Shown: positions 2,690 to 22,976, counted from the first letter of the stretch. The stretch: DNA of 41,923 nucleotides from Ignisphaera sp. (GCA_038821645.1 JAWBDT010000003.1:1-41923); one strand, 5' to 3'. Notes: generated by a model not told the origin, from the letters alone. Numbers and translations are program-made.

Positions 2690-2739
2690 ATGATGAGTGG
2701 GACCCTCGAAGACCTGATGAAGAAAGTCAGAGATGCTGA
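2690..2739 (+). ncRNA. Box C/D 2'-O-methylation guide sRNA
   Basis: ATGATGA(C)-gtgggaccctcg(12 nt)-AAGA(D', degenerate)-cctg-ATGAAGA(C')-aagtcagagatg(12 nt)-CTGA(D). Confidence 0.75.
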
Positions 2740-2770
2740 TACATTAAATATAGTAAGCATAGGTAACAGA

Positions 2771-3822: not shown

Positions 3823-3965
3823 AAACATAGAAACCTAGATGAAGTAGTACCTTCACACTACCAATATCTATATATTTCTACTTCTGGTCGCATTAGCAAT
3901 ACTAATACTTAAATTGGTTACTAATACTATACTATATAGGTTAGCTGTAGTCTGTATGGTGTAAC

Positions 3966-5192: not shown

Positions 5193-5204
5193 GGGGATGC
5201 ATTA

Positions 5205-5531
5205 ATGAGTATAGATAAAAACATTTTAATAGTGTTTCTAAAAAGTATTTCATCTGCATCTCACCAGATTGTGAAGCTTAAACCCGATAGCTATATGATT
5301 GGTAGAGATCCTGATTGTGATATAGTTGTTGCAGATCCTTTTGTATCTAGAAAACATGCAAAAATATTCTATAGAGATGGTAAATGGTTTATAGAGGATG
5401 TTGGTAGCAAAAACGGTACATATGTAGATGGCGAAGATATAAGGGGTAGAGGGGCAATAGAACTTAAAGAAGATATGGAGATAATCATGGGTTTCTCAGT
5501 ACTAATCATCAAGGGATTCGAGGAGAGCTAA
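5205..5531 (+). CDS. FHA domain protein (ArnA-like, FHA domain only)
   Basis: IGR, VSRKHA, DVGSKNGTYV pThr-binding motifs. Confidence 0.92.
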   Translation: MSIDKNILIVFLKSISSASHQIVKLKPDSYMIGRDPDCDIVVADPFVSRKHAKIFYRDGKWFIEDVGSKNGTYVDGEDIRGRGAIELKEDMEIIMGFSVLIIKGFEES

Positions 5532-5618
5532 CTTTATTATCTCTTCAATAATTACAGAAACTTAGGCTCGTCCTCTCAGGCTACAATGTAATGGTGTATC
5601 TTATATTTAGGTGTTCAT

Positions 5619-7169: not shown

Positions 7170-7370
7170 TTGTTGTCATTTTAATAAACTAATGTATATC
7201 TAAGACTACTCTCTACATAATGCATTATATTTATCATTTCTCGTGGCTTCTACATACAGTTTGTACCTAATAGATAATATTAACCCTGTTTATTAACTTA
7301 TTAAAAGTGCTCAGAAAGATATTTACTATGACTTATACCAAGAATATTCATTAAATGAGGTTACAGAAGC

Positions 7371-7859
7371 ATGGATGTCTACATATCACATATAAATGTG
7401 AATAATCTAAATGGATTTCTTGAATATTTGAAACATAAAGGGATAAATCCTGAAGAGTACTTCCATACAGTTTTAGCAGATTCATCGGAATTCGAAATAA
7501 TTGTAGGTAGTAAAGGAGAAAGCAGAATAGTCTATATGTTTGTACACTATATAGATACACATTATGCTGTTCTCTCAGACATAGGCGAAAACTCATCTGA
7601 TAGAGAGATTCTACAAGCACTTCTATCCGTTAGTAAAAAGGACTTATGGAGAATATTGGTGGAACCAATGATATATGTAACAAATGATTATAGTTTCATA
7701 AGGCTTATCAACAGTTATGTAGATAGCACTCTAGATGCTGGGATGAAATATCTAGAAAGGTATCTTAATTCTAGTGATAGCATTAAGAAGGTAATAGATA
7801 TCGATTCTGTTCTAGATATAGCATATAGAATTAAGAAAATAAATGGTGAGAATATTTAA
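7371..7859 (+). CDS. Hypothetical protein, translationally coupled to mobB
   Basis: 162 aa ORF, GAGGT upstream, TAATG stop/start overlap with the next gene. Confidence 0.7.
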   Translation: MDVYISHINVNNLNGFLEYLKHKGINPEEYFHTVLADSSEFEIIVGSKGESRIVYMFVHYIDTHYAVLSDIGENSSDREILQALLSVSKKDLWRILVEPMIYVTNDYSFIRLINSYVDSTLDAGMKYLERYLNSSDSIKKVIDIDSVLDIAYRIKKINGENI

Positions 7860-8614
7860 TGAAACCCTACATAGTTAGATTTATATCGTTACATTCTGGT
7901 GTCGGTAAAACATTTATAGCGAGTCAAGTAGTCGCTAGGCTAAAGAATAAAGGTTATAGTGTAGGTGTTATTAAGCACTGTATTCACGATTTAGAGATAG
8001 AGGATAAAGATACACACAAGTATCTATATAGTGGTGCTGATACAGTAGTAGCTTCTTCAGCTAGTCTAGGGATAATATATCAAAGAATATGGGTGGATTC
8101 ACTTACTGATAACATTAGATACATCGGGACACCAATAACTATAGTTGAGGGATTCAAAAATATAGATATAGGCGATGTTGTAGTTGTTGTAGAGAATGAA
8201 GAGGACATTCATGAGGTTCTCGACATGAAAAACATGATAGCGTATATTGTTAAGGAATTCAAAGATAATAAGAAAGAATACAGAGGTACACCAATACTTA
8301 CTTTTAATGATATTGATGAGCTAACAAATATCATAGAAAGCAGAGCTATCGATCATATATATCAACAACTACCGAAAACAGATTGTGGTGCTTGTGGATA
8401 CGATAATTGTTGGCTATTTGCTAAAGCATATATCAAAGGAAAAACACAATGGTGTCCTAGAGATTCAGAAGTTTCTCTAATAGTAGATGGTGTAAAAATT
8501 TCACTCAATCCTTATGTTAAAAAAGTCCTTAAATCAATAGTTTTAGCGTTTATAGATACACTCAAGGATGTACCCAAGGATAAGAAGAAGATATCTATAG
8601 AGATCAATATATGA
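7859..8614 (+). CDS. mobB: Molybdopterin-guanine dinucleotide biosynthesis protein B with a C-terminal Fe-S domain
   Basis: SGVGKT, VGVIKH, KDT, VEGFK, DCGACGYDNC...CP, LNPYV. Confidence 0.88.
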   Translation: MKPYIVRFISLHSGVGKTFIASQVVARLKNKGYSVGVIKHCIHDLEIEDKDTHKYLYSGADTVVASSASLGIIYQRIWVDSLTDNIRYIGTPITIVEGFKNIDIGDVVVVVENEEDIHEVLDMKNMIAYIVKEFKDNKKEYRGTPILTFNDIDELTNIIESRAIDHIYQQLPKTDCGACGYDNCWLFAKAYIKGKTQWCPRDSEVSLIVDGVKISLNPYVKKVLKSIVLAFIDTLKDVPKDKKKISIEINI

Positions 8615-9008
8615 TACCTGAATTGGCAACAATACGTAAGATATTTGATGAATTATCGTTAAATTTAATTTGCTACAAGCATAAGTTTAGCGATGCGCGT
8701 TCAACACCTAGAGCATGTTACGTCTGTAGAACTTGATATGATAGAACTGTAGCTTCATGGCTAGTGCTACAGAAACTGCTAAGTTATATCAATAATTTAA
8801 TTTTTGGATCGAAATACGTAACAGTAATAATGTTTAACATACATCTATATTGTTTGCATCTTCTCTATATGCAACTCTTGTTATCAGTTTTGATATACTT
8901 GTTTAATAGCATATTAATCCAGGCTACATAAAGGTCTCAGTATCATCTAGACTTAATACGGCAGAAATATGGATTAAGACATGAAGATAATATGCTAGGT
9001 ACTTTAAT

Positions 9009-9962
9009 ATGGTTAAATTGGGTATCGTAGGACTTGGGGTTATGGGTACTCGTTTCTACAATTTATTGAGAAAGATGAATGTTGAAGTTGTTGCTGTATG
9101 TGATATAGATGAAACCAAGCTGAAGGCATTCAAGAGTGAGGGGATAAAGGTTTATAGGGATTACAGAGCTATGGCTGAAGAAGGGGGTTTTGATGGAGTT
9201 ATTATAGCTGTTCCTCCATTATATCATGCAGAACATGCTATAGAATTTCTTAGCAAAGGGTATTATGTTTTTCTAGAAAAACCTATGGCTAATGATATTG
9301 AGGGAGCTAAGAGAATTCTTGATATAGCTAAAGGTAAGAATAGACTTTTTGTTGGTTACTGTCTTAAGTTCAATAAACTGTATCAAAAAGTGAAGAATGT
9401 GATAGATAATGTGTTAGGTGAACCAAAATTCATGTGGCATATAGCTTTAGGACGCTTTCCACAGAGATCGTGGATATACTCTAAATCTATCAGCGGTGGT
9501 GTATTAATTGAGCATGGATCTCATGTAGTTCATGTCTTTTATTGGTATGGTGGATCTGTTAAGAAGGTCTATGCTAATATGACTTACAATAGCAATGATG
9601 TTGAGAAAGCATTTACAATTATTCTAGAGCATTTCTCGGGAACACTATCAACATTTACACTAAGTTGGTTTGGAGGACATAATTGGAGAAAATGGGGTAT
9701 CGATGGTGAGAAAGGCAGAATTGTTGTAGAAGGATATCTCGAAGGTGAATTCTCAGTATCTTCTCCTGACGGTACAATGATTATGAGAGAAGTGGTATCA
9801 ATGGATCCCATACATATGTATGAAGAGGAATTAAAGCACTTTATAGATACTATTGAAAGAGGAGACAGATTTCTAGTAGATGAAGAAGAAGCATTTGTTG
9901 TTCAGAAAATAATTGATGCTGCATATAGATCATCACAAGAAGGGAAAGCGATATATCTTTGA
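9009..9962 (+). CDS. Gfo/Idh/MocA family oxidoreductase
   Basis: GIVGLGVMG, LEKPMA, GGVLIEHGSH. Confidence 0.9.
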   Translation: MVKLGIVGLGVMGTRFYNLLRKMNVEVVAVCDIDETKLKAFKSEGIKVYRDYRAMAEEGGFDGVIIAVPPLYHAEHAIEFLSKGYYVFLEKPMANDIEGAKRILDIAKGKNRLFVGYCLKFNKLYQKVKNVIDNVLGEPKFMWHIALGRFPQRSWIYSKSISGGVLIEHGSHVVHVFYWYGGSVKKVYANMTYNSNDVEKAFTIILEHFSGTLSTFTLSWFGGHNWRKWGIDGEKGRIVVEGYLEGEFSVSSPDGTMIMREVVSMDPIHMYEEELKHFIDTIERGDRFLVDEEEAFVVQKIIDAAYRSSQEGKAIYL

Positions 9963-10217
9963 CGAGGTTTCTGGTTTACTGTCTAGAAAATCTCTACCTT
10001 GATAATATGGAGAAACAATGACCAGTATCATATACATACAGAGTTCCTCATATAATGGACCTAAAGACTATGTCAATTAATGCCTATACTATAATGCTAT
10101 GGAGTTCCAGTTGTAGTTAACTATTATTCGTTATTGACATATCAATATGAGTTCTCAAGTATAGCTACAGAATTAGAGTTATTGAAAACAGTAATTGTTA
10201 TCGAGTTACTGAATAAG

Positions 10218-10748
10218 CTATTCAAGTCTATTACCATAGCTATTAATATAGGTTATATCACCTAGACTTTTTCTAGATCTAAGTTGCGGAGATTCGGCTG
10301 GATAACCAAGGGCAATCATGGATATAGGGATATAGTTTGATGGTAAATTAAGTATCTTCTGTATATCTCCTATGTTCTTAAGTGTCTGGAGCCACACAGT
10401 TCCAAGACCTAAAGCATGTGCAGCTAGCATTACGTACATTGTTGCATTAGCGCAATCAACTTGATAGGAATCTGGAGAGACATTTTTATCACATGCAATC
10501 ACTATACCTATAGGTGCCTCATTTAACGGATATGCCCATGGGTGAATAGCAGCAAGTTTTGTTTTGATTTCCTTATCTGTAACAACTATGAAAATCCATG
10601 GCTGTCTATTGCCTGCGCTAGGAGCATATCTAGCTATGTCAAGAATTCTCTTCACAGTCTCCATATCGATGGGATCTGGTTTGAATTTTCTAATGCTTCT
10701 TCTAGTTAGTAAAAATTTTATCAAGATTTCTTTTTCAGATATATTCAT
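10218..10748 (-). CDS. Nitroreductase family protein
   Basis: RRSIRKF, APSAGNRQPW, LAAHALGLGTVW, ALGYP. Confidence 0.92.
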   Translation of the reverse strand: MNISEKEILIKFLLTRRSIRKFKPDPIDMETVKRILDIARYAPSAGNRQPWIFIVVTDKEIKTKLAAIHPWAYPLNEAPIGIVIACDKNVSPDSYQVDCANATMYVMLAAHALGLGTVWLQTLKNIGDIQKILNLPSNYIPISMIALGYPAESPQLRSRKSLGDITYINSYGNRLE

Positions 10749-11148
10749 AGTTAAACCCCATATTTTTTACACGCTACCCATATATTAACTGTATTTGTGG
10801 TAATATGAATCTCGTAAACAACAATGTATATTGTTAAATATATTAGATATAATAGACTAAGATATTTTGATATAGTAAGCTATTTTATTATTAACCTATA
10901 CCTCTTTATGATTCTTTAGATTTATAGAGCCGATTGACAAAAAGTATTGACGATCTTTATCATTTCAATTAGTGCGAGACATTATTATCCACAGCAAATA
11001 TTATTCCAATAATTAAGTATACATTGATATTATGTTATGAATAGAATATTATGAATAGAGGTAATTGTTGAAGACACTATAGAAAGTGATGAATGTAAAC
11101 TATTTAACTGAGGATACAGATGAAATTAAGTATCTAAGGTGAGTATTA

Positions 11149-11826
11149 ATGGATGTTACCACACTAGTTTTTACAACAATAGCTGTTTCTTCATCTGGAG
11201 CTCTAAGTCCAGGACCTCTGACTGTAGCTACATTAGCTATAGGGTCAAAGTATGGATGGAAGGGAGGAGGATATATAGCATTGGGTCATATGATGTTTGA
11301 ATTACTATATATTTTCACATTGTACTTCTTCATATCGTATATTAGAGATCTCTTGGAAGGATTTGTAGGTGATGTAGTTACTATTGTAGGAGCAGGAATG
11401 GTTATATTCTTTGCTATAATGTTGTTGAAAGACTCCTTTAGAAAATTGAGAACAATTAGATATCACACATCTATAGATGGAAATGTTGATAGTAAATGGA
11501 TAAAACTTTCAAAGAGTCCTATTTTGATAGGTGTTATTTTTACAGGATTAAACATATGGTTTCTCCTTTGGTGGCTTAGTATAGGCTTTGGGCTCCTAAT
11601 GTATGTATCCGATATGGGTTTAACTGCTATCGGTATAATGTATCTAAGCCATGTATGGATAGATTTTGCTTGGCTTATCCTTGTTGCAGAAACAAGCAAA
11701 AGAGGGACGCAACTTGTTGGAGCTAGAGGTTACTACTTGTTCATGGTCTTTTTAGGAACACTATTACTTGTGTTTGGGCTAAACATAGCTCTAAAGAGAT
11801 TTGCATTAGTGTCACTGTTGCCTTAA
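11149..11826 (+). CDS. LysE family translocator
   Basis: SGALSPGPL, GH..FE, N.WFLLWW; multiple TM helices; GGTGA RBS. Confidence 0.85.
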   Translation: MDVTTLVFTTIAVSSSGALSPGPLTVATLAIGSKYGWKGGGYIALGHMMFELLYIFTLYFFISYIRDLLEGFVGDVVTIVGAGMVIFFAIMLLKDSFRKLRTIRYHTSIDGNVDSKWIKLSKSPILIGVIFTGLNIWFLLWWLSIGFGLLMYVSDMGLTAIGIMYLSHVWIDFAWLILVAETSKRGTQLVGARGYYLFMVFLGTLLLVFGLNIALKRFALVSLLP

Positions 11827-11873
11827 GCTTTTTAACCTTCACTATTTGGCTAAAATGCTGGTGATAAATTTTT

Positions 11874-13022
11874 GTGGTTGAAGGCGAGATTCATGTAACA
11901 CCTTGGGAAGCTGAAGCATTTGTAGATTACGACAAATTGATAAAAATATTTGGAGCCAAACCTCTATCAGAACAAGAAGTAGATATGCTCAAGAGATACA
12001 CAAATGAAGATCATGTAATGCTTCGAAGAAGGGTATTCTACTCTCATAGAGATCTTGATATATACCTAAACAAATATGGTGAGGGTAAGAGGTGTGTTCT
12101 TTATACAGGTCGAGGTCCCTCAGGTTCTACTCATCTCGGTCATCTACTTCCATGGATTTTTACAAAATGGTTGCAAGATAGAATGAATCTTCATCTCTTT
12201 TTCCAGATGACTGATGACGAAAAATTTCTGCATGGTAATGATAAAAGTTTGGAGGAATACAACAGTTATGCGTACGAGAATATGCTGGACCTAATAGCTC
12301 TGGGTATGGATGCAGATAAAACTCATGTTATAATAGATACAGAAGATATACGATATCTATACCCTATAGCTGTTAGGGTAGCGAAGAAGATAACATTTTC
12401 CACACAGAAGTCAGCATTTGGGTTCACAGAATCAACAAACGTTGGCATGATCTTCTATCCTGTTCTGCAGATATCTGTAGCTTTTCTGCCAACAGATCTA
12501 TTTAATGAGCCTACAGAAGTATTGATTCCCGCTGCTATAGACCAAGATCCTTACTGGAGAATAGCTAGAGATATAGCTTCATCGTTAGGTTATCCAAAGC
12601 CTGCGCAAATACATTGCAAGCTTCTCCCAGGTCTAGACGTAGGTGGAAAAATGTCTTCATCTAAACCTGAATCAGCAGTATATACCACAGATCCACCTGA
12701 AGTAGCTTATAAAAAGATCTTGAGGTCATATACTGGTGGTCAACCTACAATAGAACTTCAAAGAAAATTAGGTGGAAATCCAGATCTATGTCCGGTATAT
12801 AAGATGTACGAGATGATGTTTGAAGAAGATGATCAAAAGCTTTTCGAGCGATACAGCTCTTGTAAACTAGGGAATATTCTGTGTGGTGAGTGCAAAAAAG
12901 AGTTAGCTGAAAGAGTGTCAAGATTTATAAAAGATCATCAGCTGAAGCGAAGAAGGGCTGTAGATCTTATCGATAAGTATCTCATAAGGAATAAGTTTGC
13001 CTTACCTCCGATTAGAAGATGA
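11874..13022 (+). CDS. trpS: Tryptophanyl-tRNA synthetase (archaeal type)
   Basis: VTPWE, YTGRGPS..HLGH, TDDEK, AIDQDPY, KMSSS; TATA-like TTTTTAA at 11829-11835 and GGTGA RBS. Confidence 0.96.
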   Translation: MVEGEIHVTPWEAEAFVDYDKLIKIFGAKPLSEQEVDMLKRYTNEDHVMLRRRVFYSHRDLDIYLNKYGEGKRCVLYTGRGPSGSTHLGHLLPWIFTKWLQDRMNLHLFFQMTDDEKFLHGNDKSLEEYNSYAYENMLDLIALGMDADKTHVIIDTEDIRYLYPIAVRVAKKITFSTQKSAFGFTESTNVGMIFYPVLQISVAFLPTDLFNEPTEVLIPAAIDQDPYWRIARDIASSLGYPKPAQIHCKLLPGLDVGGKMSSSKPESAVYTTDPPEVAYKKILRSYTGGQPTIELQRKLGGNPDLCPVYKMYEMMFEEDDQKLFERYSSCKLGNILCGECKKELAERVSRFIKDHQLKRRRAVDLIDKYLIRNKFALPPIRR

Positions 13023-13053
13023 GAACTTAACTAGGTATCATAACTTTGTAGAA

Positions 13054-13872
13054 TTAGTTGCCGAAGGTTTTCTTAAGTGTTTCGCCAGTTACTATGAGTA
13101 CAGAATTTTTAGGTACTTTAAATAGTCTTGCAATTACATCGCATTTAGCTCTTAGTAGATGGAGAGATGATGTTTTTCCTCCCTCTATATATGCTTCAGC
13201 ATTAGCTATACCTTTGGCTACAACAAAACCTTTATCTATGTATAGTACAGGTGATAGGTTTCCATGAGTTTCAATAACATCTATATTGTTGAGTTCGATA
13301 TCATTTCGCAGAACATCTATCTCATAGCTCTCTTTTCTAACCACTATAGAGACCCTATAGCCATTTAGCTTAAATGCTTTAGCGAGTAGTAAATCTATAG
13401 CAGCTTCACCTGCATTATCAAGCACTATATACACATCTATATTCTTTGGAATCTCGACTTCCTCCTCAATAACAGGTTTATCCCATATGCACTCCTCTAT
13501 GTTCTTAGCTTCGTAGCCCAGAACAGATGTATCAACAATATTTGCTGCAGCAGATATTCTTAGAGCTTCACGAAGATTCCATCCAACGCTTTCCAAGTAC
13601 TTCTCAACAATAGCTGAAAGCTTTTTACCTACTTTATTTAGCTCTTTTTTGACATCCATATAAGGATCAGGGTTTTCTGTAAGTTGTTTCACGATGTTAA
13701 AGGAGTAAGTGAAAGCATATGTTCTGCTGTAGTTTTTTCTGATTATATTGGCTAGCTCTATCAGCATTTTATCAAGTAGCTCAACCCTCTTTAGATTTAT
13801 TATGTCTTTTGATCTAGAGTATATTAGACACAGTTTACATAAATCATTATCGATCCACAAGACTATTAACAA
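13054..13872 (-). CDS. DUF89/ARMT1-like metal-dependent phosphatase
   Basis: N-terminal CxxC, DPY...K..LN, AAN..D, LDNAGE...D, AKG.AN.E, AKC; start may be TTG 13860. Confidence 0.8.
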   Translation of the reverse strand: MLIVLWIDNDLCKLCLIYSRSKDIINLKRVELLDKMLIELANIIRKNYSRTYAFTYSFNIVKQLTENPDPYMDVKKELNKVGKKLSAIVEKYLESVGWNLREALRISAAANIVDTSVLGYEAKNIEECIWDKPVIEEEVEIPKNIDVYIVLDNAGEAAIDLLLAKAFKLNGYRVSIVVRKESYEIDVLRNDIELNNIDVIETHGNLSPVLYIDKGFVVAKGIANAEAYIEGGKTSSLHLLRAKCDVIARLFKVPKNSVLIVTGETLKKTFGN

Positions 13873-14875
13873 CCTCTATAACTTTCTTTAGATCTTCTAC
13901 ACTTATATCTCCCATAACTCCTATCCTTATGGTATTGTTCTTTAGCTCACCCATACCTCCAGCAATTACATAGCCATGCTTCTTTAGTTCATTAATTATC
14001 TCTGTAGGCTTATCGGCATAGAATGCCGTTACTGTATAGCTTCTCAATGGCTCTTCTGCTACAGGTTTCAATTTAAGTGATTTATATAGCAGCTCAGCTT
14101 TCTGTTTATGTAGTTCATGGTATGTCTCTACCCCCATACTCAATATAATCTCTAGAGCTGCATCCAGTCCATATATAACATTTATAGGTGGTGTATATGG
14201 GGGATCTGCTTTATCGAGTCTCTCTATGAATTTTCTGAGGTTCATTGATGGTGGAAGAGGTGATTTTGCTCTTGGCTCTACGTTAATGTAGATTATTGCT
14301 CCTCCTGGAGGCGCCATAAAGGCTTTTTGTGTAGCTGTTGCAACTACATCAATTCTATGTCTTATTGGTTCAGCAGGTAATGCTGAAACACTATCAACTA
14401 TTAATATTGCTCCTAATCCTTCAGCTATTTTCTGTAGTTTATCTAGATATCTATTGGTTACACCTACACTAGTTTCGTTATGTACTACTGTTATAGCTCT
14501 TATGTTCTTCAGTTTCTTAGCGAAATCTTCAACAACATCTGGTGATGGTGGATGTATACGGTACCTAAGCTCATAAACTTTTGCACCTCTGGATCTAGCT
14601 GATTCAGAAATTCTTTCACCAAACTCTCCATGAACTATAGCGACTACCTCTTCTCCTGGATCTATGTAATTGTATATGGCAGTATCTACAGCAAACGTAC
14701 CTGTGCCAGGCGCTATAATGGAAGTTCCTTTGTAGACTTTAGCTAAATTATCTAGAACTCTCCTAAGGGTTTTTCTAAATTCATCAATTCTATGAAATTC
14801 CGGTTGTTTTGCTATAGCTTCTATAACCTTCTTCGGTAATTGAACAGGACCTGGAGTGAGAAACTTCATCTCCAT
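13847..14875 (-). CDS. Class V PLP aminotransferase (serine-pyruvate/phosphoserine aminotransferase-like)
   Basis: LTPGPV, GTGT, VHNETS, VDSVS, TQKAF.APPG, RIGVMG. Confidence 0.9.
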   Translation of the reverse strand: MEMKFLTPGPVQLPKKVIEAIAKQPEFHRIDEFRKTLRRVLDNLAKVYKGTSIIAPGTGTFAVDTAIYNYIDPGEEVVAIVHGEFGERISESARSRGAKVYELRYRIHPPSPDVVEDFAKKLKNIRAITVVHNETSVGVTNRYLDKLQKIAEGLGAILIVDSVSALPAEPIRHRIDVVATATQKAFMAPPGGAIIYINVEPRAKSPLPPSMNLRKFIERLDKADPPYTPPINVIYGLDAALEIILSMGVETYHELHKQKAELLYKSLKLKPVAEEPLRSYTVTAFYADKPTEIINELKKHGYVIAGGMGELKNNTIRIGVMGDISVEDLKKVIEVVNSLVDR

Positions 14876-15794
14876 CTAATCGCCTCCATAATGTTTTCGA
14901 TAAGTTCATCAGATATTCTCTCTAGAGCTTCAACAGTTTCAGCACCAATATGTGGTGTTACTATAACCTTGGGATGTTTTATGAGCTCGAGGAGATGAGG
15001 AGATCTTGGAGGTTCTTCTTCAAGAACATCAAGAGCTACACCTCCAAGTCTATCTATATGTTTTAAGAGTGCAACACTATCTATGACTTCACCTCTGCTT
15101 GTGTTCACGATTATTGCTCCGTCTCTAACTAGAGATAGTGTATGATCATTAATCATATGGTACGTCTGTGGAGTTAATGGTACATGAAGTGATATGATAT
15201 GACTCTCCTTAAGAAGTGTTTCGAGATCAACTTGTTTTCCACCGATAACAGACATCTCTAAACTGACATCTCTTACATCATGTACTAAGAGCTTCATGCC
15301 CATAGCTTTGGCATACATACCGACTCTACTACCTATCTTCCCAAATCCTATTATCCCAATAGTTTTTCCATGAAGCTCAAAACCTCCATAACGACCCTTA
15401 GGCCACTCACCTTTCTTAGCCCCATCAATATAGAGGTAGAGATTTCGAGCAGCAGCAATCATGAGCCCTATCGTTAGTTCAGCAACACTTATACATGATG
15501 CTTGCGGAGCATTTACAATAGCTATACCTTTACTAACCGCATAATCAATATCAATGTTATCTAGGCCTATTCCATATCTAGCGAGTATCTTTAATCTCTT
15601 TCCTCTGTCAATAACCTCTTTATCTATTTTGAGACGACCTCTGAATATGAGTATATCGTATTGTTCAACTATCTCGAGAAGAGATTGGTAATCAATTCCA
15701 GGTCTATAATCAACATCTATAGCTCTATCCCTAAGTTTGTTTATTGTTTTTTCTGATACTTTATCAACTATTAATGCACGTAATTTATCGACAA
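14866..15794 (-). CDS. serA: D-3-phosphoglycerate dehydrogenase-like; extends about 110 codons upstream of the ORF-track start; start codon out of frame
   Basis: Frame open from about 15790: DKLRALIVD...ARYGIGLDNID...NAP...VAELTIGLM, then GIIGFGKIG, HVPLT, NTSRG, LDV.EEEP, TPHIGA. Confidence 0.85.
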
Positions 15795-16042: not shown

Positions 16043-17335
16043 ATGGATAGTACATATAATGATGGGGTATTTTTTAGAGAAATATATCCATTTCATGATG
16101 TTCCACGCATAGGTCACATAGATGATCGTGAAATAGTTGAAAATCTTAATAAGATATATTTGACGGATACAACATTAAGAGATGGTCAGCAAGGATGGAG
16201 GGTATTTAGTGTAGAAGAATGTGAAAAAATATATGAACTTTTAGCAGATATCGGTAGAGCTATAACAAGTACTGAAGTATTTCTATATACTGATAAAGAT
16301 AGAGAAGTTGTCAAAAGGTTAATCAGTTATGGTTATGAGTATCCTAAGGTAATAGGCTGGATTAGAGCTACACATTCCGATTTGCAACTAGTTATAGACA
16401 TAGGCTTAGATGAAACAATAATACTCACATCTATATCAGATTACCACATAAGATACAAGTTTGGTGTAACACGTGAAGAAGCTATTAAGAAGTATCTAGA
16501 GGTTGTTGAGAAGGCTCTGAGCCATGGAATAGCTGTAAGAGCTTCTCTTGAGGATATAACTAGAGCTGATATCCATGGAGCTGTCATCCCCTTTGTTAAA
16601 AAACTGTTAGAACTTAGCGAAAGATACAGAGTTCCTGTAAAGATAAAGCTACCAGATACCCTCGGATTAGGGCTACCTTTCTATGAAGTGTCATTGCCGA
16701 GAAGCATACCGAGGATAGTGAAGACTATAAGAAGCTTAGGGATTCCACAAGAGTATATAGAGTTCCATGCACATAACGATTTAGGTCTTGCTGTAGCTAA
16801 TCAGATTGCTGCATGGATATATGGAGCAGCAGCAGCTAACTGCACCATATTCGGTATAGGTGAGAGATCCGGTAACTGTCCTCTAGAGATCATGGCCATA
16901 CATTACGCAGGTATAAAAGGATCACAAGATATCAACCTCAGAGCGATATCCAAGATACCCGAAGTTTTTGATAAAATGGGTTATAGAGCTGTAGAACATT
17001 ATCCTATACTTGGCAAAAATGCCTTTAGGACTAAAGCCGGAATACACGTTGATGGACTTATGAAAAATCCTGAAGTCTATCTACCATTTGATCCTATAAA
17101 GGTCTTAGGGATACCTTATTCAGTATCTATAACGCCTTATGCAGGTAGATCAGCTATAGTGTTATGGATAAGGAATTACCTCGGCTACAATGGTATAAGT
17201 AAAGATGATCCGAGAGTGATTGAGACATACAATGATATTGTTGAGTATTTCAATATGTCAGGAAGAACAGAACCTTTAACAGATGAAGAAGTAGAGAGAT
17301 TTATTAAGAAACATTTTCCCGAGCTATTCAGATAA
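16043..17335 (+). CDS. DRE-TIM metallolyase (LeuA/NifV family), most like Re-citrate synthase
   Basis: REIYPFHDVPRI, TDTTLRDGQQ, E.FLYT.KD, YP.V.GWIRA, SDYHI, EDITRADI, LPRS, HAHND, GIGERSGNCPLE, AGIHVDGL.KN; no LeuA regulatory domain. Confidence 0.8.
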   Translation: MDSTYNDGVFFREIYPFHDVPRIGHIDDREIVENLNKIYLTDTTLRDGQQGWRVFSVEECEKIYELLADIGRAITSTEVFLYTDKDREVVKRLISYGYEYPKVIGWIRATHSDLQLVIDIGLDETIILTSISDYHIRYKFGVTREEAIKKYLEVVEKALSHGIAVRASLEDITRADIHGAVIPFVKKLLELSERYRVPVKIKLPDTLGLGLPFYEVSLPRSIPRIVKTIRSLGIPQEYIEFHAHNDLGLAVANQIAAWIYGAAAANCTIFGIGERSGNCPLEIMAIHYAGIKGSQDINLRAISKIPEVFDKMGYRAVEHYPILGKNAFRTKAGIHVDGLMKNPEVYLPFDPIKVLGIPYSVSITPYAGRSAIVLWIRNYLGYNGISKDDPRVIETYNDIVEYFNMSGRTEPLTDEEVERFIKKHFPELFR

Positions 17336-17387
17336 GAAAAGGTATCGAATTACTACAACACTAATAACATTGTTCTGGTGTATAATT

Positions 17388-18644
17388 TTGGGCCTAATAG
17401 ATACACTCCTATCTAAAGTAGTAGGTAAAGATGTTGTACCAGGGGATATAACAGTAGTTGATGTAGATGTTATATATGCACAAGACGGTACAGCACCATT
17501 AGTTATAGATGTTATAGAAAAAGAACTCGGTGTTGACAAGCTTCTGGCTTCGGATAGAACATTCTTCTTCATAGATCACTCATCGCCAGCACCTCATATC
17601 TCTGCAGCTACTGTTCATAAGGAGATGAGGAGATTTGGTAAAAAACATGGCATACACGTATATGATGTAGGTAACGGGATATGTCATCAAGTTGTTGTAG
17701 ATGAAGGTATTGTAAGGCCTGGTATGATCGTTATGGGGGCAGACAGTCATACACCTACTGTGGGTGCTCTAGGACTTTTTGCGCTTGGTGTGGGAAGTAC
17801 TGATGCAGCTATAGCTATAGCCTATGGAAAGCAATGGGTAAGAGTTCCACCAACAATGAAAATAGTTCTGCTAGGTGTTCCCCAAATAGGTGTAATGTCT
17901 AAAGACATAATACTTAGCATCATAGGTGAATTTGGTACGGATGGAATGATAGGTAAAGCTGTAGAATTCCATGGTGATACACTTAGACATCTATCTATGG
18001 ATGCTAGACTTACGTTAACCAACATGTGTACAGAAATGAGTGCAGAATCTGCTGTTATACCTGTTGATGATGTAACTAATGCATGGCTTAAGGAGAGAAA
18101 CTTCACACACTATAGGTTCATAGACTATGATCCAAAGAGATCGAATTTCATTGATGAGGCTGTATTTGAGGTAGATAAGATAGAGCCTGTTGTAGCAGCA
18201 CCACCAGATGTAGATAATGTTGTTACAGTAAATGAGGTTAGTAATGTCGAAATAGATCAAGTGTTCGTAGGATCTTGTACTAATGGTAGGCTTGAAGATA
18301 TGGAAATAGTTGCCCGAATACTAAATAAGAGAAAGGTCCATAGAAACGTTAGATGTATTGTTTCACCAGCTTCACGAAGGGTATATATAGAGGCTCTTAA
18401 AAGAGGATACATAGATATTATTGTTGAAGCTGGATGCGTCATAGCACCACCTACATGTGGACCTTGTGTAGGAGCTCACATGGGGATATTAGGTGAAGAT
18501 GAGATAGCAGTATCAACAACAAATAGAAACTTTCCTGGAAGAATGGGGCACAAGAACAGCAAAGTCTATTTATCATCGCCAGCAGTAGCTGCAGCTTCTG
18601 CTATCGAAGGAAAGATAGCTGACCCTAGGAAATATCTTTCTTAG
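17388..18644 (+). CDS. LeuC/homoaconitase-type dehydratase large subunit
   Basis: QDGT, DH, GICHQ, GADSHT, GSCTNGR, CGPCVG, STTNRNF.GRMG; likely start TTG 17388 after GGTG. Confidence 0.9.
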   Translation: MGLIDTLLSKVVGKDVVPGDITVVDVDVIYAQDGTAPLVIDVIEKELGVDKLLASDRTFFFIDHSSPAPHISAATVHKEMRRFGKKHGIHVYDVGNGICHQVVVDEGIVRPGMIVMGADSHTPTVGALGLFALGVGSTDAAIAIAYGKQWVRVPPTMKIVLLGVPQIGVMSKDIILSIIGEFGTDGMIGKAVEFHGDTLRHLSMDARLTLTNMCTEMSAESAVIPVDDVTNAWLKERNFTHYRFIDYDPKRSNFIDEAVFEVDKIEPVVAAPPDVDNVVTVNEVSNVEIDQVFVGSCTNGRLEDMEIVARILNKRKVHRNVRCIVSPASRRVYIEALKRGYIDIIVEAGCVIAPPTCGPCVGAHMGILGEDEIAVSTTNRNFPGRMGHKNSKVYLSSPAVAAASAIEGKIADPRKYLS

Positions 18645-18646
18645 AG

Positions 18647-19177
18647 GTGGTAAACCTGATTATAAGAGGCAGATGTTGGAAATTAAGTGACAATATAAGT
18701 ACAGACCATATAATATCAGGTAAATACAAGTTTAGTGCTATTGATAAAATAGAGGCCATGGTTCCGCACGTTCTCGAGGAGGTTATTCCAGAATTCTACA
18801 AAAAAGTCAATAAGGGAGATATAATAGTTGCTGGAAGAAATTTTGGGAAAGGATCAAGCAGAGAACAAGCTCCAAGGCTTCTAAAGATCGTTGGTGTGGC
18901 AGCTATAGTTGCAAAAAGTTTTGCTCATATATTCTACAGAAACTCAATAAATATAGGGTTGCTTGTTATTGTTGCACAAAAAATACCTGACGTTACTGAG
19001 ACCGGAGATATTGTGGAGATAGATATTAGTAAAGGTGTGGTAAAGAATTTAACTAAAGATATTGAAGAACAGATAGCTCCTTTTCCAGGAGAACTAGCTG
19101 TTATAGTTGAAGCAGGAGGCATTATAGAGTACATTAAGAGATATGGTGGCCCTCCATGGCAAAAAGGTACAAGATAG
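18647..19177 (+). CDS. LeuD/homoaconitase-type dehydratase small subunit
   Basis: DNISTDHII, AGRNFGKGSSREQA, SFA.IFYRN. Confidence 0.9.
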   Translation: MVNLIIRGRCWKLSDNISTDHIISGKYKFSAIDKIEAMVPHVLEEVIPEFYKKVNKGDIIVAGRNFGKGSSREQAPRLLKIVGVAAIVAKSFAHIFYRNSINIGLLVIVAQKIPDVTETGDIVEIDISKGVVKNLTKDIEEQIAPFPGELAVIVEAGGIIEYIKRYGGPPWQKGTR

Positions 19178-20202
19178 GTGTTATTAGAGGCGATGGAATA
19201 GGTCCCGAAATAATTGATTCGACATTAGAAGTTCTTCAGCACCTTAATCCAGGTATAGATTTTGTAGAGATTTCTGCAGGATACGAATACTATAAGAAAA
19301 CAGGTAAAGCAGTAGAAGATACATTCTTTGATACTATTAGAAATCTTGATGCAGTTTTGAAGGGCCCTCTCTATACACCTCCTCACGATCCTAATTTCAA
19401 GAGTATAAATATACTTATTAGAAGAGAACTAGATCTCTATGCAAATATACGTCCTTTCAAGAGTTTTCGTGGTGTTTCTCAGAAAGTGTTCAATATAGTT
19501 ATCTTTAGGGAGAATACCGAAGGCGAATATGTAGGTATAGAGGGCATGTTTAATAATATAGCAATCTCATTAAGAATCATAAGTGAGAAGGGGTCTAGAA
19601 GGATATGTGATCTAGCTTTTAGATATGCAAAACTTCTTGGATTTAATAAGGTGTCAGTAGTACATAAAGCAAATATACTTAAGGTAAGTGATGGACTATT
19701 TAGAAGAATATTCTTTGATGTTGCTAAGAATTATCCAGATATACTAGCTAATGAGATTATAGTTGATACTGCTGCTTACATGCTTGTCAAAAATCCTGAA
19801 GATCTACAGATTCTCGTTACACCTAACCTCTATGGCGATATACTTTCAGACCTAGTTGGAGGACTTATGGGGAGCCTAGGTCTATGTGGATCAGCGCTAA
19901 TAGGTGATACAATAGGTGTTTTTGAGCCTATACATGGTGTCGCTATGGATATAGCTGGTAAAGGTATAGCTAATCCTGTAGGAGCAATGATGGCTGCTAA
20001 AATGATGCTTGAGTACCTAGCTCAAAGATACACCGATTCAACTCTTATTGAAAAGGCTAGAGCATTAGAGAACTCTATTTATATCGTTATAGAGGATAAA
20101 AAGATTTGGACACCTGATCTTGGAGGAAACTATAAAACGAGAGATGTAGCTAAAGCAGTAACAGAAGAACTAAACAAGGTGTTGTATACTTCGCCTAAAT
20201 AA
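19156..20202 (+). CDS. Isocitrate/isopropylmalate dehydrogenase family; isocitrate-type motifs, probably NAD-dependent
   Basis: GDGIGPE, LKGPLYTP, KSINILIRRELDLYAN, RENTEG, HKANI, NLYGDILSD, EPIHG.A.DIAGKG.ANP. Confidence 0.85.
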   Translation: MAKRYKIGVIRGDGIGPEIIDSTLEVLQHLNPGIDFVEISAGYEYYKKTGKAVEDTFFDTIRNLDAVLKGPLYTPPHDPNFKSINILIRRELDLYANIRPFKSFRGVSQKVFNIVIFRENTEGEYVGIEGMFNNIAISLRIISEKGSRRICDLAFRYAKLLGFNKVSVVHKANILKVSDGLFRRIFFDVAKNYPDILANEIIVDTAAYMLVKNPEDLQILVTPNLYGDILSDLVGGLMGSLGLCGSALIGDTIGVFEPIHGVAMDIAGKGIANPVGAMMAAKMMLEYLAQRYTDSTLIEKARALENSIYIVIEDKKIWTPDLGGNYKTRDVAKAVTEELNKVLYTSPK

Positions 20203-20307: not shown

Positions 20308-21498
20308 ATGTATAGAGTTGTGAAAGAGGAGGTATTTCTAAAATGTATTAAATGTGGACATGAATATATACCATCTCCCAGATTGTTCATATGCCCCAAA
20401 TGTGGTTCACTACTAGAGGTTATCATTAACAATACAAAGTTTGAATGGAACAAGATTAAGACTAGACGGTTCGGTGTATGGAGATATAGAGAGCTATTAC
20501 CCATAAGAGATGATGTAGAACCAGTAACAATGTGTGAAGGAGGTACACCATTAATTAAAGCTCTAAACCTATACGAAAGAAAACACGTAGCTATACCCAA
20601 CACCTATATAAAATTTGAAGGAGCTAACCCCACAGGTAGTTTTAAGGATCGTGGAATGACTGTAGGAGTAACTATAGCAAAATACATAAATGTTGATGGT
20701 GTAGTAGTAGCAAGCACAGGAAATACAGCTGCTTCGGCAGCTGCTTACGCAGCTAGAGCTGGACTTAAATGCATTGTAGTTCTACCTAAAGGATCTGTTG
20801 CCAAAGGTAAAATAGCTCAAGCACTTCTACATGGAGCTGAGATCAAAGAGATAGAGGGATCGTTCGATAACGCTCTTGAAGAAGTATTTGAATCTATTGT
20901 AGAAGGTGAGTTTAAGAACATGTATCCACTAAATTCCTATAACCCGTGGCGTCTAGAAGGACAAAAGACAATAGCCTATGAGATAGTAGATGAACTTGGA
21001 AAAGTACCGGATTATGTGATAGTACCAGTTGGTAATGCGGGAAATATTTCAGCCATATGGAAAGGATTCAAAGAGCTCTATAGTCTTGGTTACATAGACA
21101 AACTTCCTAAGATGATAGGGGTTCAAGCAGAAGGAGCAGCACCACTAGCATCAGCATGGAGAGAAGGACTTTCTGAACCTCTATATGTGGATAAACCAAA
21201 CACTATTGCCTCGGCCATAAGAATCGGAAAACCAATCAATTGGCCTAAGGCATTCAAAGCTGTTAAAGAGTCCCACGGTTTCTTCATTGATGTTAGTGAT
21301 GAAGAAATAATTAATGCGATGAAACTACTGGCTAGGGTTGAAGGATTAGGGGTAGAGCCTGCAAGTGCAGCATCCTTGGCTGGACTGATGAAATGCGAGA
21401 GAGAAGGCAAAATCGATAAGGATAGTCTTGTGGTACTTATAGCGACAGGTCATGCGCTAAAGGATCCTGACACAATTATAGGTAAAGTAGTTATATAG
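20308..21498 (+). CDS. thrC: Threonine synthase
   Basis: Zn ribbon CxxC..CPKCG, EGGTPL, NPTGSFKDRG, ASTGNT, RLEGQKT, PVGNAGN; own TATA-like TTTTTTAA at 20237-20244. Confidence 0.93.
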   Translation: MYRVVKEEVFLKCIKCGHEYIPSPRLFICPKCGSLLEVIINNTKFEWNKIKTRRFGVWRYRELLPIRDDVEPVTMCEGGTPLIKALNLYERKHVAIPNTYIKFEGANPTGSFKDRGMTVGVTIAKYINVDGVVVASTGNTAASAAAYAARAGLKCIVVLPKGSVAKGKIAQALLHGAEIKEIEGSFDNALEEVFESIVEGEFKNMYPLNSYNPWRLEGQKTIAYEIVDELGKVPDYVIVPVGNAGNISAIWKGFKELYSLGYIDKLPKMIGVQAEGAAPLASAWREGLSEPLYVDKPNTIASAIRIGKPINWPKAFKAVKESHGFFIDVSDEEIINAMKLLARVEGLGVEPASAASLAGLMKCEREGKIDKDSLVVLIATGHALKDPDTIIGKVVI

Positions 21499-21575: not shown

Positions 21576-22976
21576 TTGTATATACCTAAGTTATTGTGTA
21601 CTCAACATCCAGATGCTACTGTAAAAATTACTACTCAACAAGAGGTTGATGAAGCTCTACAAGGATACGCTATGTATGGTTGTGATGAAATTATGAGTGA
21701 TTATGAAGGAAAGTTAACACCCTATGCTCAGCCTAAAGATATTGTTCTTAGATCTTATGAGCTTGAAATCCCCATAGGAGAGAAATTCTTTGTAACGCCT
21801 AGGATCCCTAATCCTTCGCTAGAAGATTTCGATAGGGTTGATCTCTCAATAGAAGCAGGTCTTATAGCGAACTACTACTCCTATAAAACAATGAATGTTC
21901 AGGCTGTTAGATGGTTCATTCTGCCAATGGTTGAAGACTCTAATGTTGTCAGATTTGTGCAGAGATTAATAATAATGAAAGAGAAAGTGATAAGTGAAGA
22001 AGTTAATGCTAAGATGTTGCCTGTGCAACTCATACCTCTTATTGAGGAAACACATAAGCATATGGTTATACATGACTATGTTTCTACGATTGTATCTGTA
22101 CTTAATGAATTTGATGCACAGATAGACACATTAAGAGTATTTCTAGGTAAAAGCGATGCAGCTGTTAGAAGTGGTCATATAGCTTCCTCTCTATCGCTTG
22201 TCTATGCATTAAATGAGCTTGAAAAGTTAGCTAAAGAATACGATATAGAGATAAAACCAATTATAGGTATGGGTGTACCACCGTTTAGAGGAGCCCTAAA
22301 TAATCCAGAATTAGTTGAATATGAGGTTCAACGCTATAGAGGTTTTTCTACAGCAACTATACAATCAGCCATAAGGTACGATATACCCTATAGGGATTAT
22401 ATCATTGTAAAGAACACGATACTAGCAAATGTAGATACAAAACCAAAGCCTATGCCTCTATCTTCAGACGTTATAGGTATCATAGATCAGGCTACTAGAC
22501 TCTATAGGAGGTTAGTGTCTAAGTATTGTGATATTATACAGAAGATAGCGAATAATGTTCCAGGAACTAGAGAGAGGATATCTTGGAAAAGTTATGGAAG
22601 AATACTTCCGCTTCAAAATGAAGCGCTCTCAGTTCCCCGTGCAATAGTCTACACATCAGCTTGGTATGCAACCGGAATACCACCGACATATCTTGATGCA
22701 GAATTCGTAATAGAGATGTATAAACAGGATAAACTCGATGAGATTCTCAAACTAGTTCCCTACCTAGATAAGGAATGGCTCTACGACTCTAAATTCTATG
22801 TGCGTGATATAGCTATAGAGAGACTCAACGAAGATATTGTTAAGAAGGTTGACAAAGCGCTAGACATAATGGGCATAAAGCCTGAACCAATAGATGTCTA
22901 CAGATCTCTTCTAATGCTTAATCCAATTGAGCTACACATTACGGCCTTAGGTAAAATAAGAGGATTTTTGGGATAA
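21576..22976 (+). CDS. ppcA: Archaeal-type phosphoenolpyruvate carboxylase
   Basis: IP....TQHPD, DYEGK, RIPNP, IPLIE, RVFLGKSD, PPFRG, TIQSA, PRAI, C-terminal RGFLG; TATA TTTATATA at 21534-21541. Confidence 0.93.
   Translation: MYIPKLLCTQHPDATVKITTQQEVDEALQGYAMYGCDEIMSDYEGKLTPYAQPKDIVLRSYELEIPIGEKFFVTPRIPNPSLEDFDRVDLSIEAGLIANYYSYKTMNVQAVRWFILPMVEDSNVVRFVQRLIIMKEKVISEEVNAKMLPVQLIPLIEETHKHMVIHDYVSTIVSVLNEFDAQIDTLRVFLGKSDAAVRSGHIASSLSLVYALNELEKLAKEYDIEIKPIIGMGVPPFRGALNNPELVEYEVQRYRGFSTATIQSAIRYDIPYRDYIIVKNTILANVDTKPKPMPLSSDVIGIIDQATRLYRRLVSKYCDIIQKIANNVPGTRERISWKSYGRILPLQNEALSVPRAIVYTSAWYATGIPPTYLDAEFVIEMYKQDKLDEILKLVPYLDKEWLYDSKFYVRDIAIERLNEDIVKKVDKALDIMGIKPEPIDVYRSLLMLNPIELHITALGKIRGFLG

Follow-up and report, generated by a model that had tools for sequence, protein, structure and literature searches.

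A four-gene Ignisphaera operon with a condensing enzyme of the Re-citrate-synthase branch and a possible dual role in 2-oxoacid elongation

The locus raises the question of which 2-oxoacid is elongated by a leu-like operon of Ignisphaera sp. The window, meaning the whole stretch of 41,923 nucleotides analyzed here, had been described in the initial annotation as containing a four-gene operon that probably forms a Re-citrate route to 2-oxoglutarate. ORF calling returned exactly these four genes, all on the plus strand: g1 (16,043–17,335; 430 aa), a condensing enzyme of the archaeal "operon-type" sub-clade of the Re-citrate-synthase branch; g2 (17,370–18,644; 424 aa), the large subunit of a LeuC/HacA-type [4Fe-4S] dehydratase; g3 (18,647–19,177; 176 aa), the dehydratase small subunit; and g4 (19,156–20,202; 348 aa), a beta-decarboxylating dehydrogenase with an ICDH-like substrate loop. 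Gaps of 34 nt and 2 nt follow g1 and g2, respectively, whereas g3 shares its last 22 nt with g4. The motifs quoted earlier for g1 and g4 could all be read in the translations.

The condensing enzyme

The g1 protein contains the Pfam domains HMGL-like and HCS_D2. The Pfam search gave no LeuA_dimer match, in agreement with the earlier remark that the LeuA regulatory domain is missing. Its translation carries REIYPFHDVPRI, RDGQQ, FLYTDKD, GWIRA, SDYHI and EDITRADI. All NCBIfam cut-offs were missed, with a top score of 194.6 bits against a required 517; g1 fell below every cut-off of the IPMS, CimA and NifV models (180.8 bits against 462.9 for NifV) and below that of the typical homocitrate synthase (HCS) model TIGR02146 (179.1 bits against 413.55). 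Matches within its own family scored 245–490 bits at 36–54% identity, in alignments that span the N-terminal extension, while generic HCS and IPMS sequences reached at most 150 bits. The source names of family members include "citrate (Re)-synthase", and the named bacterial relatives come from Desulfovibrio, Syntrophus, Kuenenia/Brocadiaceae and Lachnospiraceae, groups in which Re-citrate synthase is reported (PMC12016533, PMC8027424).

A quick tree search, with SH-aLRT as its only support measure and without named characterised enzymes, split the g1 family from an HCS/IPMS/CimA outgroup at a support of 100. It placed g1 in an archaeal clade, sister to Ignicoccus-type copies, with key archaeal nodes at 93–94. 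We know of no characterised enzyme in the operon-type clade.

The active-site motifs were compared with those of 20 bacterial and 5 Ignicoccus-type copies. All 25 share TDTTFRDGQQ, R-x-H-(L/F)-E-D and N/A-x-T-x-AGIH. None of these three is found in g1, which instead has TDTTLRDGQQGWR, R-A-S-L-E-D and F-R-T-K-AGIH. Its predicted pocket retains an Arg and a Ser (V-R-A-S) and has a Trp (G-W-I-R-A) where HCS-like sequences have a His; we take that His (x-H-x-R-A) and the Arg-x-Ser/Thr pair to bind the distal carboxylate in HCS. The Ser site is Ser or Thr in HCS-like sequences and His in Re-citrate synthases. The earlier proposal that g1 is a Re-citrate synthase therefore held in part. By scores and tree, g1 groups in that branch, away from LeuA, CimA and typical HCS, but it lies outside the bacterial/Ignicoccus sub-clade and differs from it in conserved active-site motifs. 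Judged by its sequence, g1 is neither LeuA nor a standard HCS and belongs to an archaeal sister clade within the Re-citrate-synthase branch.

The closest known counterpart is the Clostridium kluyveri-type Re-citrate synthase (EC 2.3.3.3), an oxygen-sensitive enzyme that attacks from the Re face in citrate formation; it shares with g1 the same branch of the HCS/IPMS superfamily, an N-terminal extension with FP..VP, the motifs RDGQQ, FLYT, GWIRA, SDYHI and EDITRAD, and the lack of a regulatory domain. This enzyme, like g1, is found in genomes without Si-citrate synthase and is commonly misnamed IPMS or HCS (PMC12016533; source names). Bacterial Re-citrate synthases are, however, only 38–42% identical to g1, which forms a separate archaeal clade, and their R-x-H, TDTTF and N-x-T correspond to R-A-S, TDTTL and FRTK in g1. 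A further difference is the operon around g1, whose other genes encode a split LeuCD-type dehydratase and a LeuB/ICDH-type dehydrogenase.

Re-citrate synthase activity in Ignicoccus is known from labelling (Jahn et al. 2007, cited in PMC12016533), and a gene copy was seen here in Ignicoccus pacificus (locus L243). The Ignicoccus-type copy is likewise archaeal and was drawn from the same order-level sample; its genome gave no Si-citrate synthase match, and in the tree it is sister to the operon-type clade, at 46–48% identity to g1. Unlike g1, it is solitary, has the bacterial motifs R-V-H and TDTTF and is 50–56% identical to bacterial relatives. Genomes of this type also contain a typical HCS over the cut-off.

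Automatic annotation would make this an ordinary leucine, citramalate or coenzyme-B-type operon, and the source names listed for it were all "2-isopropylmalate synthase" or "isopropylmalate/homocitrate/citramalate synthase". We consider this very improbable. The model scores and missing regulatory domain speak against it, as does an arginine in g1 where IPMS-like and CimA-like paralogues carry Glu or Ile. The genome already has a separate leucine-type set, with leuC and leuD on contig C16 and cimA, a leuA-like gene and a leuB-like gene on contig C17.

The dehydratase and the dehydrogenases

Pfam assigned g2 to Aconitase and g3 to Aconitase_C. The large subunit passed the subfamily models TIGR02086 (538 bits), NF001614 and TIGR01343, passed no equivalog model, LEU2 (457 bits against 611) and HacA_Meth (433 against 550) included, and was matched weakly by the AcnA and AcnB models. 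The small subunit passed the subfamily model TIGR02087 (175 bits) and no equivalog model for homoaconitase or isopropylmalate isomerase. HacA and HacB models are among the best equivalog-type scores of the two proteins, with HacB2_Meth at the top for g3, a point in favor of a lysine function. In PDB alignments, the substrate loop of g3, GKYKFS, differs from those of Methanocaldococcus jannaschii HACN (GPYLRT), M. jannaschii IPMI (ARYLVY) and Pyrococcus horikoshii (GRYNLT); its YKFS is neither the YLRT of HACN nor the YLVY of IPMI. The same loop occurs in 22 related loci. The g2/g3 pair is a candidate aconitase and/or homoaconitase.

The g4 protein matched Iso_dh in Pfam (288 bits) and passed no NCBIfam cut-off, whether for ICDH equivalogs (317 bits against 509, 304 against 510 and 287 against 432) or for HICDH-type models (348 against 540 and 269 against 680). 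Its best solved relatives were the NAD-ICDH 6LTF (248.6 bits) and Thermus thermophilus HICDH (246 bits). When the loop segment KSINILIRRELDLYANIRP was used alone, 16 ICDHs ranked above any HICDH. The motifs noted previously as KGPLxTP and SxNxxIR appear as KGPLYTP and SINILIR, and the isocitrate-type Ser/Asn pattern was borne out, with Ser and Asn at –6 and –4 from the first substrate-binding Arg. These two positions are presumably the substrate-specificity residues of isocitrate dehydrogenases. At –3, g4 has Ile and not the Thermus-type Arg.

A type II NADP-isocitrate dehydrogenase (1,318–2,559, minus strand; NF006156, 566 bits against a cut-off of 335) is encoded in the window 14 kb from the operon and was absent from the initial annotation. 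This gene was found in the genome under study, and 11 of 12 further sampled genomes of the genus have it as well. The enzyme likely consumes isocitrate made by g1–g3. Having a bona fide NADP-ICDH in the window renders g4 dispensable as an isocitrate dehydrogenase.

These observations bear on two single-purpose explanations. In the first, g1–g4 would make 2-oxoglutarate for glutamate only, the LysW cluster would serve arginine alone and lysine would be imported. The ICDH-type loop of g4 and the retained NADP-ICDH favor this route, while the redundancy of g4 beside that enzyme does not; all evidence considered, we regard it as rather unlikely. In the second, the operon would have been drawn from the Re-citrate-synthase lineage to serve lysine alone, with g1–g4 acting as homocitrate synthase, homoaconitase and homoisocitrate dehydrogenase in the initial half of the aminoadipate pathway and 2-oxoglutarate coming from peptide-derived glutamate. 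The Ser of g1, HCS-like in contrast to the His of Re-citrate synthases, agrees with this. Against it, g4 has the ICDH Ser-x-Asn and no T. thermophilus HICDH arginine, and the NADP-ICDH conserved in Ignisphaera would be left without an isocitrate source. A function in lysine synthesis alone seems improbable to us.

Gene inventories of the genome and its relatives

The genome is 97.8% complete. In it, a check for gltA found no Si-citrate synthase (0 PF00285 matches), and AcnA, AcnB and lysA likewise gave no match. It has two aconitase-family genes, g2 and the leuC on C16, both of LeuC type. The lack of lysW, lysX and ilv reported earlier is correct for the window ORFs scanned; elsewhere in the genome there is a lys cluster that had been missed (LysZ, LysY, LysW, LysX, LysJ and LysK), with the lysW and lysX matches solely on C16 and the ilv genes on C17. 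The two other synthases of the genome do not have the arginine found in g1 and HCS-like sequences, which we assume is expected for a dicarboxylic 2-oxoacid substrate. There is no second HCS candidate, so g1 is the sole possible homocitrate maker for a LysW-dependent lysine pathway, making a homocitrate-forming round probable. On the other hand, the genome has one such synthase, one LysX/ArgX-type ligase and argG 6 kb from lysK, a set with which the LysW cluster could be arginine-only, leaving a pure citrate route. This ligase is closer to lysW-adjacent than to stand-alone copies in four of five two-ligase lineages (41–52% against 33–39% identity), which counts against the glutamate-only explanation; the opposite holds for the f7 genome G049, where the stand-alone copy is the closer one (47%, and 39% for the copy beside lysW).

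Gene order was inspected in 40 related loci, and gene content was surveyed in 201 sampled genomes. The sampled genomes are akin to one another, so that the counts below overstate independence. In 6 of the 40 loci (L206, L208, L212, L213, L214 and L226), lys genes directly adjoin the operon, and g1 is next to lysZ in two more. This supports a lysine function and argues against synthesis of glutamate alone, as do two genomes (G141 and G153) that have Si-citrate synthase and the operon as sole synthase. Other contexts point toward citrate and away from lysine. Three genomes (G065, G087 and G183) keep g1–g4 as their sole synthase and sole Iso_dh; searches there for LysW, LysX and LysY/ArgC found no match. 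In G187 (locus L229), the order is ICDH2-g1-g2-g3, with a standard NADP-ICDH directly upstream of g1 replacing g4. Three others (G010, G063 and G068) carry a typical HCS over the cut-off together with the operon and have no Si-citrate synthase match. The clade closest to g1 (SH-aLRT 99) includes the three genomes without lys or arg gene matches.

Among the 201 genomes, all 27 with a type II NADP-ICDH have Si-citrate synthase or a g1-type gene. Of the 48 that carry a g1-type gene, 41 yielded no Si-citrate synthase match, and a g1-type gene is present in 41 of the 105 genomes without such a match. Genomes that seemingly need both activities usually have two synthases and two LysX/ArgX ligases, a habit that speaks against general bifunctionality and fits a citrate-only operon. 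LysX-positive genomes that lack any such synthase, such as G044, also count against a dual function. Taken together, the earlier reading of the operon as a route to 2-oxoglutarate gains from the missing Si-citrate synthase match and from relatives that retain the operon without lys genes; it loses from the lys cluster in a genome with no lysA match, the lys-joined operons and the separate NADP-ICDH.

A possible dual role

The best fit to these data is a dual role, with lysine (homocitrate) synthesis remaining in play. We tentatively propose, at somewhat less than even confidence, that the operon is a promiscuous 2-oxoacid elongation module that converts oxaloacetate to 2-oxoglutarate and probably carries the latter on to 2-oxoadipate. 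It would consist of a Re-citrate-synthase-lineage condensing enzyme, a two-subunit LeuCD/HacAB-type dehydratase and an ICDH-like dehydrogenase. The core job would be to turn oxaloacetate and acetyl-CoA into citrate, isocitrate and 2-oxoglutarate, with the final step catalyzed by the NADP-ICDH of the window and/or g4. In a second round, the same enzymes would probably extend 2-oxoglutarate, via homocitrate and homoisocitrate, to 2-oxoadipate. Gene order, family placement, gene inventories and the neighborhoods in relatives are observed, whereas the substrate specificities and the stereochemistry given here for the operon enzymes are all inferred. It is also conceivable, though we hold this extension with more doubt, that Ignisphaera and several other Thermoproteota make glutamate/arginine and lysine on one promiscuous enzyme set, with one LysX-type ligase loading both glutamate and aminoadipate onto LysW.

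Two known systems resemble such a module. In the Thermus/Thermococcales aminoadipate lysine pathway, HCS, HacAB and HICDH of the first half are encoded next to lysWXYZJK. The T. thermophilus HCS is reported to accept oxaloacetate, and the lysine-pathway dehydrogenases of Thermococcus kodakarensis and P. horikoshii to accept isocitrate. The four-gene logic is the same, the fusion with lysYZWXJK recurs in the six related loci, and g4 scores almost equally with T. thermophilus HICDH (246 bits) and the NAD-ICDHs (249 bits). However, g1 is not a typical HCS (TIGR02146 below cut-off, Trp for His), T. thermophilus HICDH has Gly..Ile-Arg in place of the Ser-x-Asn of g4, and the operon is also found in relatives with no lys genes. 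In the methanogen AksA, AksD-E and AksF system for coenzyme B, a single set of synthase, dehydratase and dehydrogenase likewise lengthens dicarboxylic 2-oxoacids round after round. Compared with other equivalogs, the HacA, HacB and AksF models score rather well on the operon proteins, though all below cut-off (433 bits against 550, 178 against 230 and 348 against 540); the g3 substrate loop differs, and Ignisphaera is not a methanogen.

A pathway of broad specificity has been postulated as the ancestor of the TCA, leucine, lysine and arginine routes. If the enzyme set is indeed shared, the operon would be a living example of such a pathway, and homocitrate synthase activity would have arisen a second time, from a citrate synthase. 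The IPMS or generic source names for the g1 family lead reconstructions to report no citrate synthase and an incomplete TCA branch, and either to credit the genome with a second, spurious leucine operon or to find homocitrate synthase missing. The genomes affected belong to Ignisphaera, Desulfurococcaceae-like, Pyrodictium-like, Thermofilaceae and related groups. The contexts seen in the clade form a natural series (operon alone, with typical HCS, with Si-citrate synthase, duplicated, lys-fused, and with the dehydrogenase swapped for a standard ICDH) that could reveal shifts in specificity between citrate and homocitrate synthesis.

The oxaloacetate for the proposed module could be supplied by an archaeal-type PEP carboxylase two genes downstream (21,576–22,976, plus strand; TIGR02751, 256 bits against a cut-off of 146). 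The window also encodes a CitMHS-family anion transporter; citrate import would thus be possible in principle, which counts against a citrate-synthesis reading. Between g4 and the PEP carboxylase gene lies threonine synthase (20,308–21,498, plus strand; TIGR00260, 303 bits against a cut-off of 167), a conserved downstream neighbor that also follows g4 in loci L204, L216, L217 and L230. The order g4-thrC-PEP carboxylase recurs in L204.

Layout of the operon and family of its condensing enzyme

The operon is real. The ORF list holds four plus-strand ORFs exactly where the initial annotation had placed them: the condensing enzyme g1 (16043-17335; Pfam HMGL-like and HCS_D2, without the LeuA regulatory domain), the dehydratase subunits g2 (17370-18644; Aconitase) and g3 (18647-19177; Aconitase_C), and the dehydrogenase g4 (19156-20202; Iso_dh). 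The genes are closely packed, with a 22-nt overlap between g3 and g4. Ignisphaera MAGs supply the nearest database proteins of g1 (92% identity), whose source names are, without exception, isopropylmalate synthase or a generic variant.

Downstream of g4 lies thrC, as it also does at four related loci (L204, L216, L217, and L230), and in the window and at L204 it is followed by PEP carboxylase. Ahead of g1, the minus strand (13847-15462) encodes a class V aminotransferase together with an ORF resembling D-2-hydroxyacid/phosphoglycerate dehydrogenase; the latter, at 198 aa, matches just the C-terminal portion of the models, and its true start may be further upstream. Some 4 kb before the operon (11149-11826, plus strand) is the gene for an amino-acid exporter of the LysE type (PF01810, 72 bits), whose family takes in lysine, arginine, and threonine exporters. 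The stretch 3966-7169 (plus strand) encodes a VWA-domain protein and, after it, a protein of 516 aa that bears a protein kinase domain of the eukaryote type.

When 1.84 billion representatives were searched, the g1 family stood out as distinct. Its members scored 245-490 bits at 36-54% identity, with the N-terminal extension covered, compared to at most 150 bits for generic homocitrate synthases (HCS) and isopropylmalate synthases (IPMS). Names in the family clusters include 'citrate (Re)-synthase' and '2-phosphinomethylmalic acid synthase', and one Desulfovibrionales protein is named 'histone-lysine N-methyltransferase'. The motifs quoted by the initial annotation are all readable in the translations, and those it attributed to Re-citrate synthase are precisely the ones common to the family alignment. 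Against NCBIfam, g1 fell far below all cut-offs (best match 194.6 bits vs 517; LysS_fung_arch, 179 vs 413.55; NifV, 181 vs 463), and g2 and g3 passed subfamily models only. The best PDB match of g1 was the homocitrate synthase 6KTQ (137 bits), and no solved Re-citrate synthase was among its PDB matches.

A single-protein scan of named genomes, which returned only Ignisphaera and 68 bacterial loci (mostly Bacteroidota, about 30% identity), was superseded by alignment-based scans with 80 loci listed per scan. The bacterial members found in this way include Desulfovibrio, Bilophila, Syntrophus/Syntrophales, Kuenenia/Brocadiaceae, Lachnospiraceae, Nitrospirae, and Omnitrophota. C. kluyveri, S. aciditrophicus, D. 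mccartyi, and H. modesticaldum were not among the 80 loci listed in either alignment-based scan and, therefore, the likely tie to characterized Re-citrate synthases is indirect, through the Kuenenia homolog, the source names, and the taxon range. The Kuenenia 'isopropylmalate synthase' is reported to share 55.1% identity with the enzyme of C. kluyveri (PMC8027424). Re-citrate synthase is described as being used in Firmicutes, Chloroflexota, Thermodesulfobacteriota, and the archaeon Ignicoccus, and as often misannotated as HCS or IPMS (PMC12016533). We searched the literature for a published archaeal gene of the g1 kind and came upon nothing past the mention of Ignicoccus.

Phylogeny and active-site motifs

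A quick tree of 77 rows with SH-aLRT support split the g1 family from the HCS, IPMS, and CimA outgroup (support 100). Inside the family, the bacterial sequences formed one clade (98) and the archaeal sequences another (93). The latter comprises a small set of solitary copies, a second group in which solitary f7-family copies are joined by one copy from genome G069 (97), and, with support of 94, a large clade with all the operon-type genes, including g1. The assignment of g1 to the Re-citrate-synthase family, apart from HCS, IPMS, and CimA, was borne out, but g1 falls in neither the bacterial nor the f7/Ignicoccus-type clade. In one scan, the f7-type protein showed 86% identity to its counterpart in Ignicoccus pacificus DSM 13166 and 50-56% to its bacterial relatives. 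Its identity to g1 is 46-48%. Judged by its sequence, g1 belongs, in the wide sense, to the Re-citrate-synthase lineage, within an uncharacterized archaeal sub-clade.

Bacterial members of the family have TDTTFRDGQQ, R-x-H-(L/F)-E-D, and N/A-x-T-x-AGIH in common with the f7-type ones. In the operon-type clade, the motifs read TDTTLRDGQQGWR, (R/K)-x-(S/T/A)-L-E-D, and F-(R/K)-T-K-AGIH. The HCS-like outgroup rows carry His in x-H-x-R-A and R-F-(S/T), whereas g1 carries Trp and R-A-S. We take the Arg and Ser/Thr of HCS to bind the distal carboxylate of 2-oxoglutarate, following the Thermus and S. pombe structures. At the Arg position, Glu and Ile are found in the LeuA-like and CimA-like proteins of the same genome.

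The dehydrogenase g4 reached no NCBIfam cut-off. Its best solved relatives were nearly tied, with NAD-dependent isocitrate dehydrogenases (ICDH) at 248.6 bits and T. thermophilus homoisocitrate dehydrogenase (HICDH) at 246 bits. When the substrate loop alone was compared, 16 ICDHs ranked before the first HICDH. This ICDH-type loop carries Ser-x-Asn, where T. thermophilus HICDH carries Gly..Ile-Arg, and argues for a citrate role. Of 24 g4 orthologs examined, 22 retain Ser-x-Asn. The two exceptions (L221 in G153 and L233 in G141) both have Ser-Ile-Thr and both come from genomes with an ordinary citrate synthase (Si-CS); the change may be a mark of specialization for homoisocitrate. The second Iso_dh of the Ignicoccus-like genome, considered as a possible g4-type dehydrogenase for both roles, is longer, has only 35% identity to g4, and was uninformative on it.

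Genome inventory and distribution

The genome that carries the window (1.57 Mb, 31 contigs, 97.8% complete) had no match to Si-CS (PF00285) or to AcnA/B. Its aconitase family consists of g2 and of leuC on contig C16. Its HMGL-type synthases are g1, a CimA-like gene within an ilvD-cimA-ilvC-ilvB cluster, a LeuA-like gene (389 aa) adjoining a LeuB-like gene on C17, and a weak fourth match on C1 that is under the cut-off (27.3 bits). The Iso_dh genes are g4, the LeuB-like gene, and a type II (eukaryote-like) NADP-ICDH in the window (1318-2559, minus strand; 566 bits vs a cut-off of 335), which the initial annotation had overlooked. Among the 12 other genomes of the genus that were sampled, 11 also gave a match to the type II enzyme, and G054 did not. 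This conserved NADP-ICDH requires an isocitrate source, which favors a citrate role for the operon.

The distribution was assessed in 201 genomes of the class, which are related to one another, with g1-type genes called at 340 bits or more; paralogs reached at most 160. A g1-type gene was present in 48 genomes and fragments in two more. Si-CS had no match in 41 of these 48, the remaining seven being G006, G179, G189, G141, G153, G145, and G155. In family f5, Si-CS was present in 38/38 genomes and a g1-type gene in 0/38. Type II ICDH was found in 27/201 genomes, all of which had Si-CS or a g1-type gene. Typical HCS was over the cut-off in 46/201 genomes: 37 of f5, four of f7, G034, G164, G010, G063, and G068.

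Citrate, homocitrate, or both

The evidence makes it probable that the operon produces 2-oxoglutarate from oxaloacetate. Whether it does this and also provides 2-oxoadipate for lysine is a more tentative matter, and we would put the chances of such a dual role slightly short of even; a route confined to citrate is less likely than the dual one. The proposal has close known counterparts in bacterial Re-citrate synthase and in the lysine enzymes of Thermus and Thermococcales, which have relaxed specificity.

Gene contexts were compared at 40 loci from 36 genomes, four of which have two copies. The complete g1-g2-g3-g4 array was found at 20 loci, g1 with g2/g3 and no g4 at three, g1-g4 pairs at three, g1 next to lysZ at two, and solitary g1-type copies at 11. 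The remaining locus (L229, G187) has type II ICDH-g1-g2-g3 without g4, with the ICDH fused upstream; it is the sole Iso_dh of its genome, and this pairing of g1-g3 with a standard ICDH supports a citrate role. The second, solitary copies in G054, G020, G014, and G069 are L205, L207, L209, and L211, and in the first three genomes no difference from the operon copy was seen at the compared motifs.

Several genomes speak for a citrate role that is independent of lysine. G065 and G087 (single contig, 99% complete), together with G183, keep the operon as their sole synthase and sole Iso_dh, with no match to Si-CS, LysW, LysX, LysY/ArgC, or argG, and their copies form one well-supported clade with g1 (99). 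The operon is also kept in G010, G063, and G068 despite a typical HCS for lysine; these genomes have no Si-CS match, and their dehydratases and Iso_dh genes number only two each. Ignisphaera sequence variants were among the strongest 13C-acetate and 13C-aspartate assimilators in a hot-spring isotope-probing study (PMC10579274), which is consistent with the proposal but no proof of it.

A homocitrate role is suggested by the genome itself, where C16 bears lysZ, lysY, lysW, lysX, lysJ, and lysK, lysA has no match, and no other synthase has the Arg. The single LysX/ArgX-type ligase (two other RimK-family genes best match MptN) also points this way in four of the five lineages compared, with 41-52% identity to the in-cluster ligase of two-ligase genomes vs 33-39% to the stand-alone ligase. 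The order was reversed with the f7 genome G049 (47% to the stand-alone copy, 39% to the lysW-adjacent copy). Furthermore, the full array adjoins lysY-Z-W-X-J-K at six of its 20 loci (L206, L208, L212, L213, L214, and L226). At L226 (G007:C2:17000-36999), two lysW and two LysX-type ligases, then lysY, lysZ, lysJ, and lysK, and then g1-g4 lie within 2402-13412, apparently as one combined supercluster for arginine, lysine, and elongation. In G141 and G153, the operon supplies the only synthase, alongside Si-CS and two ligases. Even so, a route serving lysine alone is improbable, given the evidence for citrate.

Several observations weigh against the dual role. Where a genome seemingly requires both activities, it mostly encodes two dicarboxylate-type synthases along with two ligases; the sets encountered were Si-CS or Re-CS type with typical HCS, the operon with typical HCS, Si-CS with the operon, and two g1-type copies. 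The Ignisphaera genome has one synthase of this type, one ligase, and argG (6 kb beyond the C16 cluster) and, thus, its LysW cluster might serve arginine only. G044 has a LysX match and yet no synthase whatever. Citrate could also be provided otherwise, by a 433-aa membrane protein in the window (30771-32072, minus strand; Pfam CitMHS, 'citrate transporter', 180 bits). This protein had only weak DASS/MamN-type matches in NCBIfam and could import citrate or another anion.
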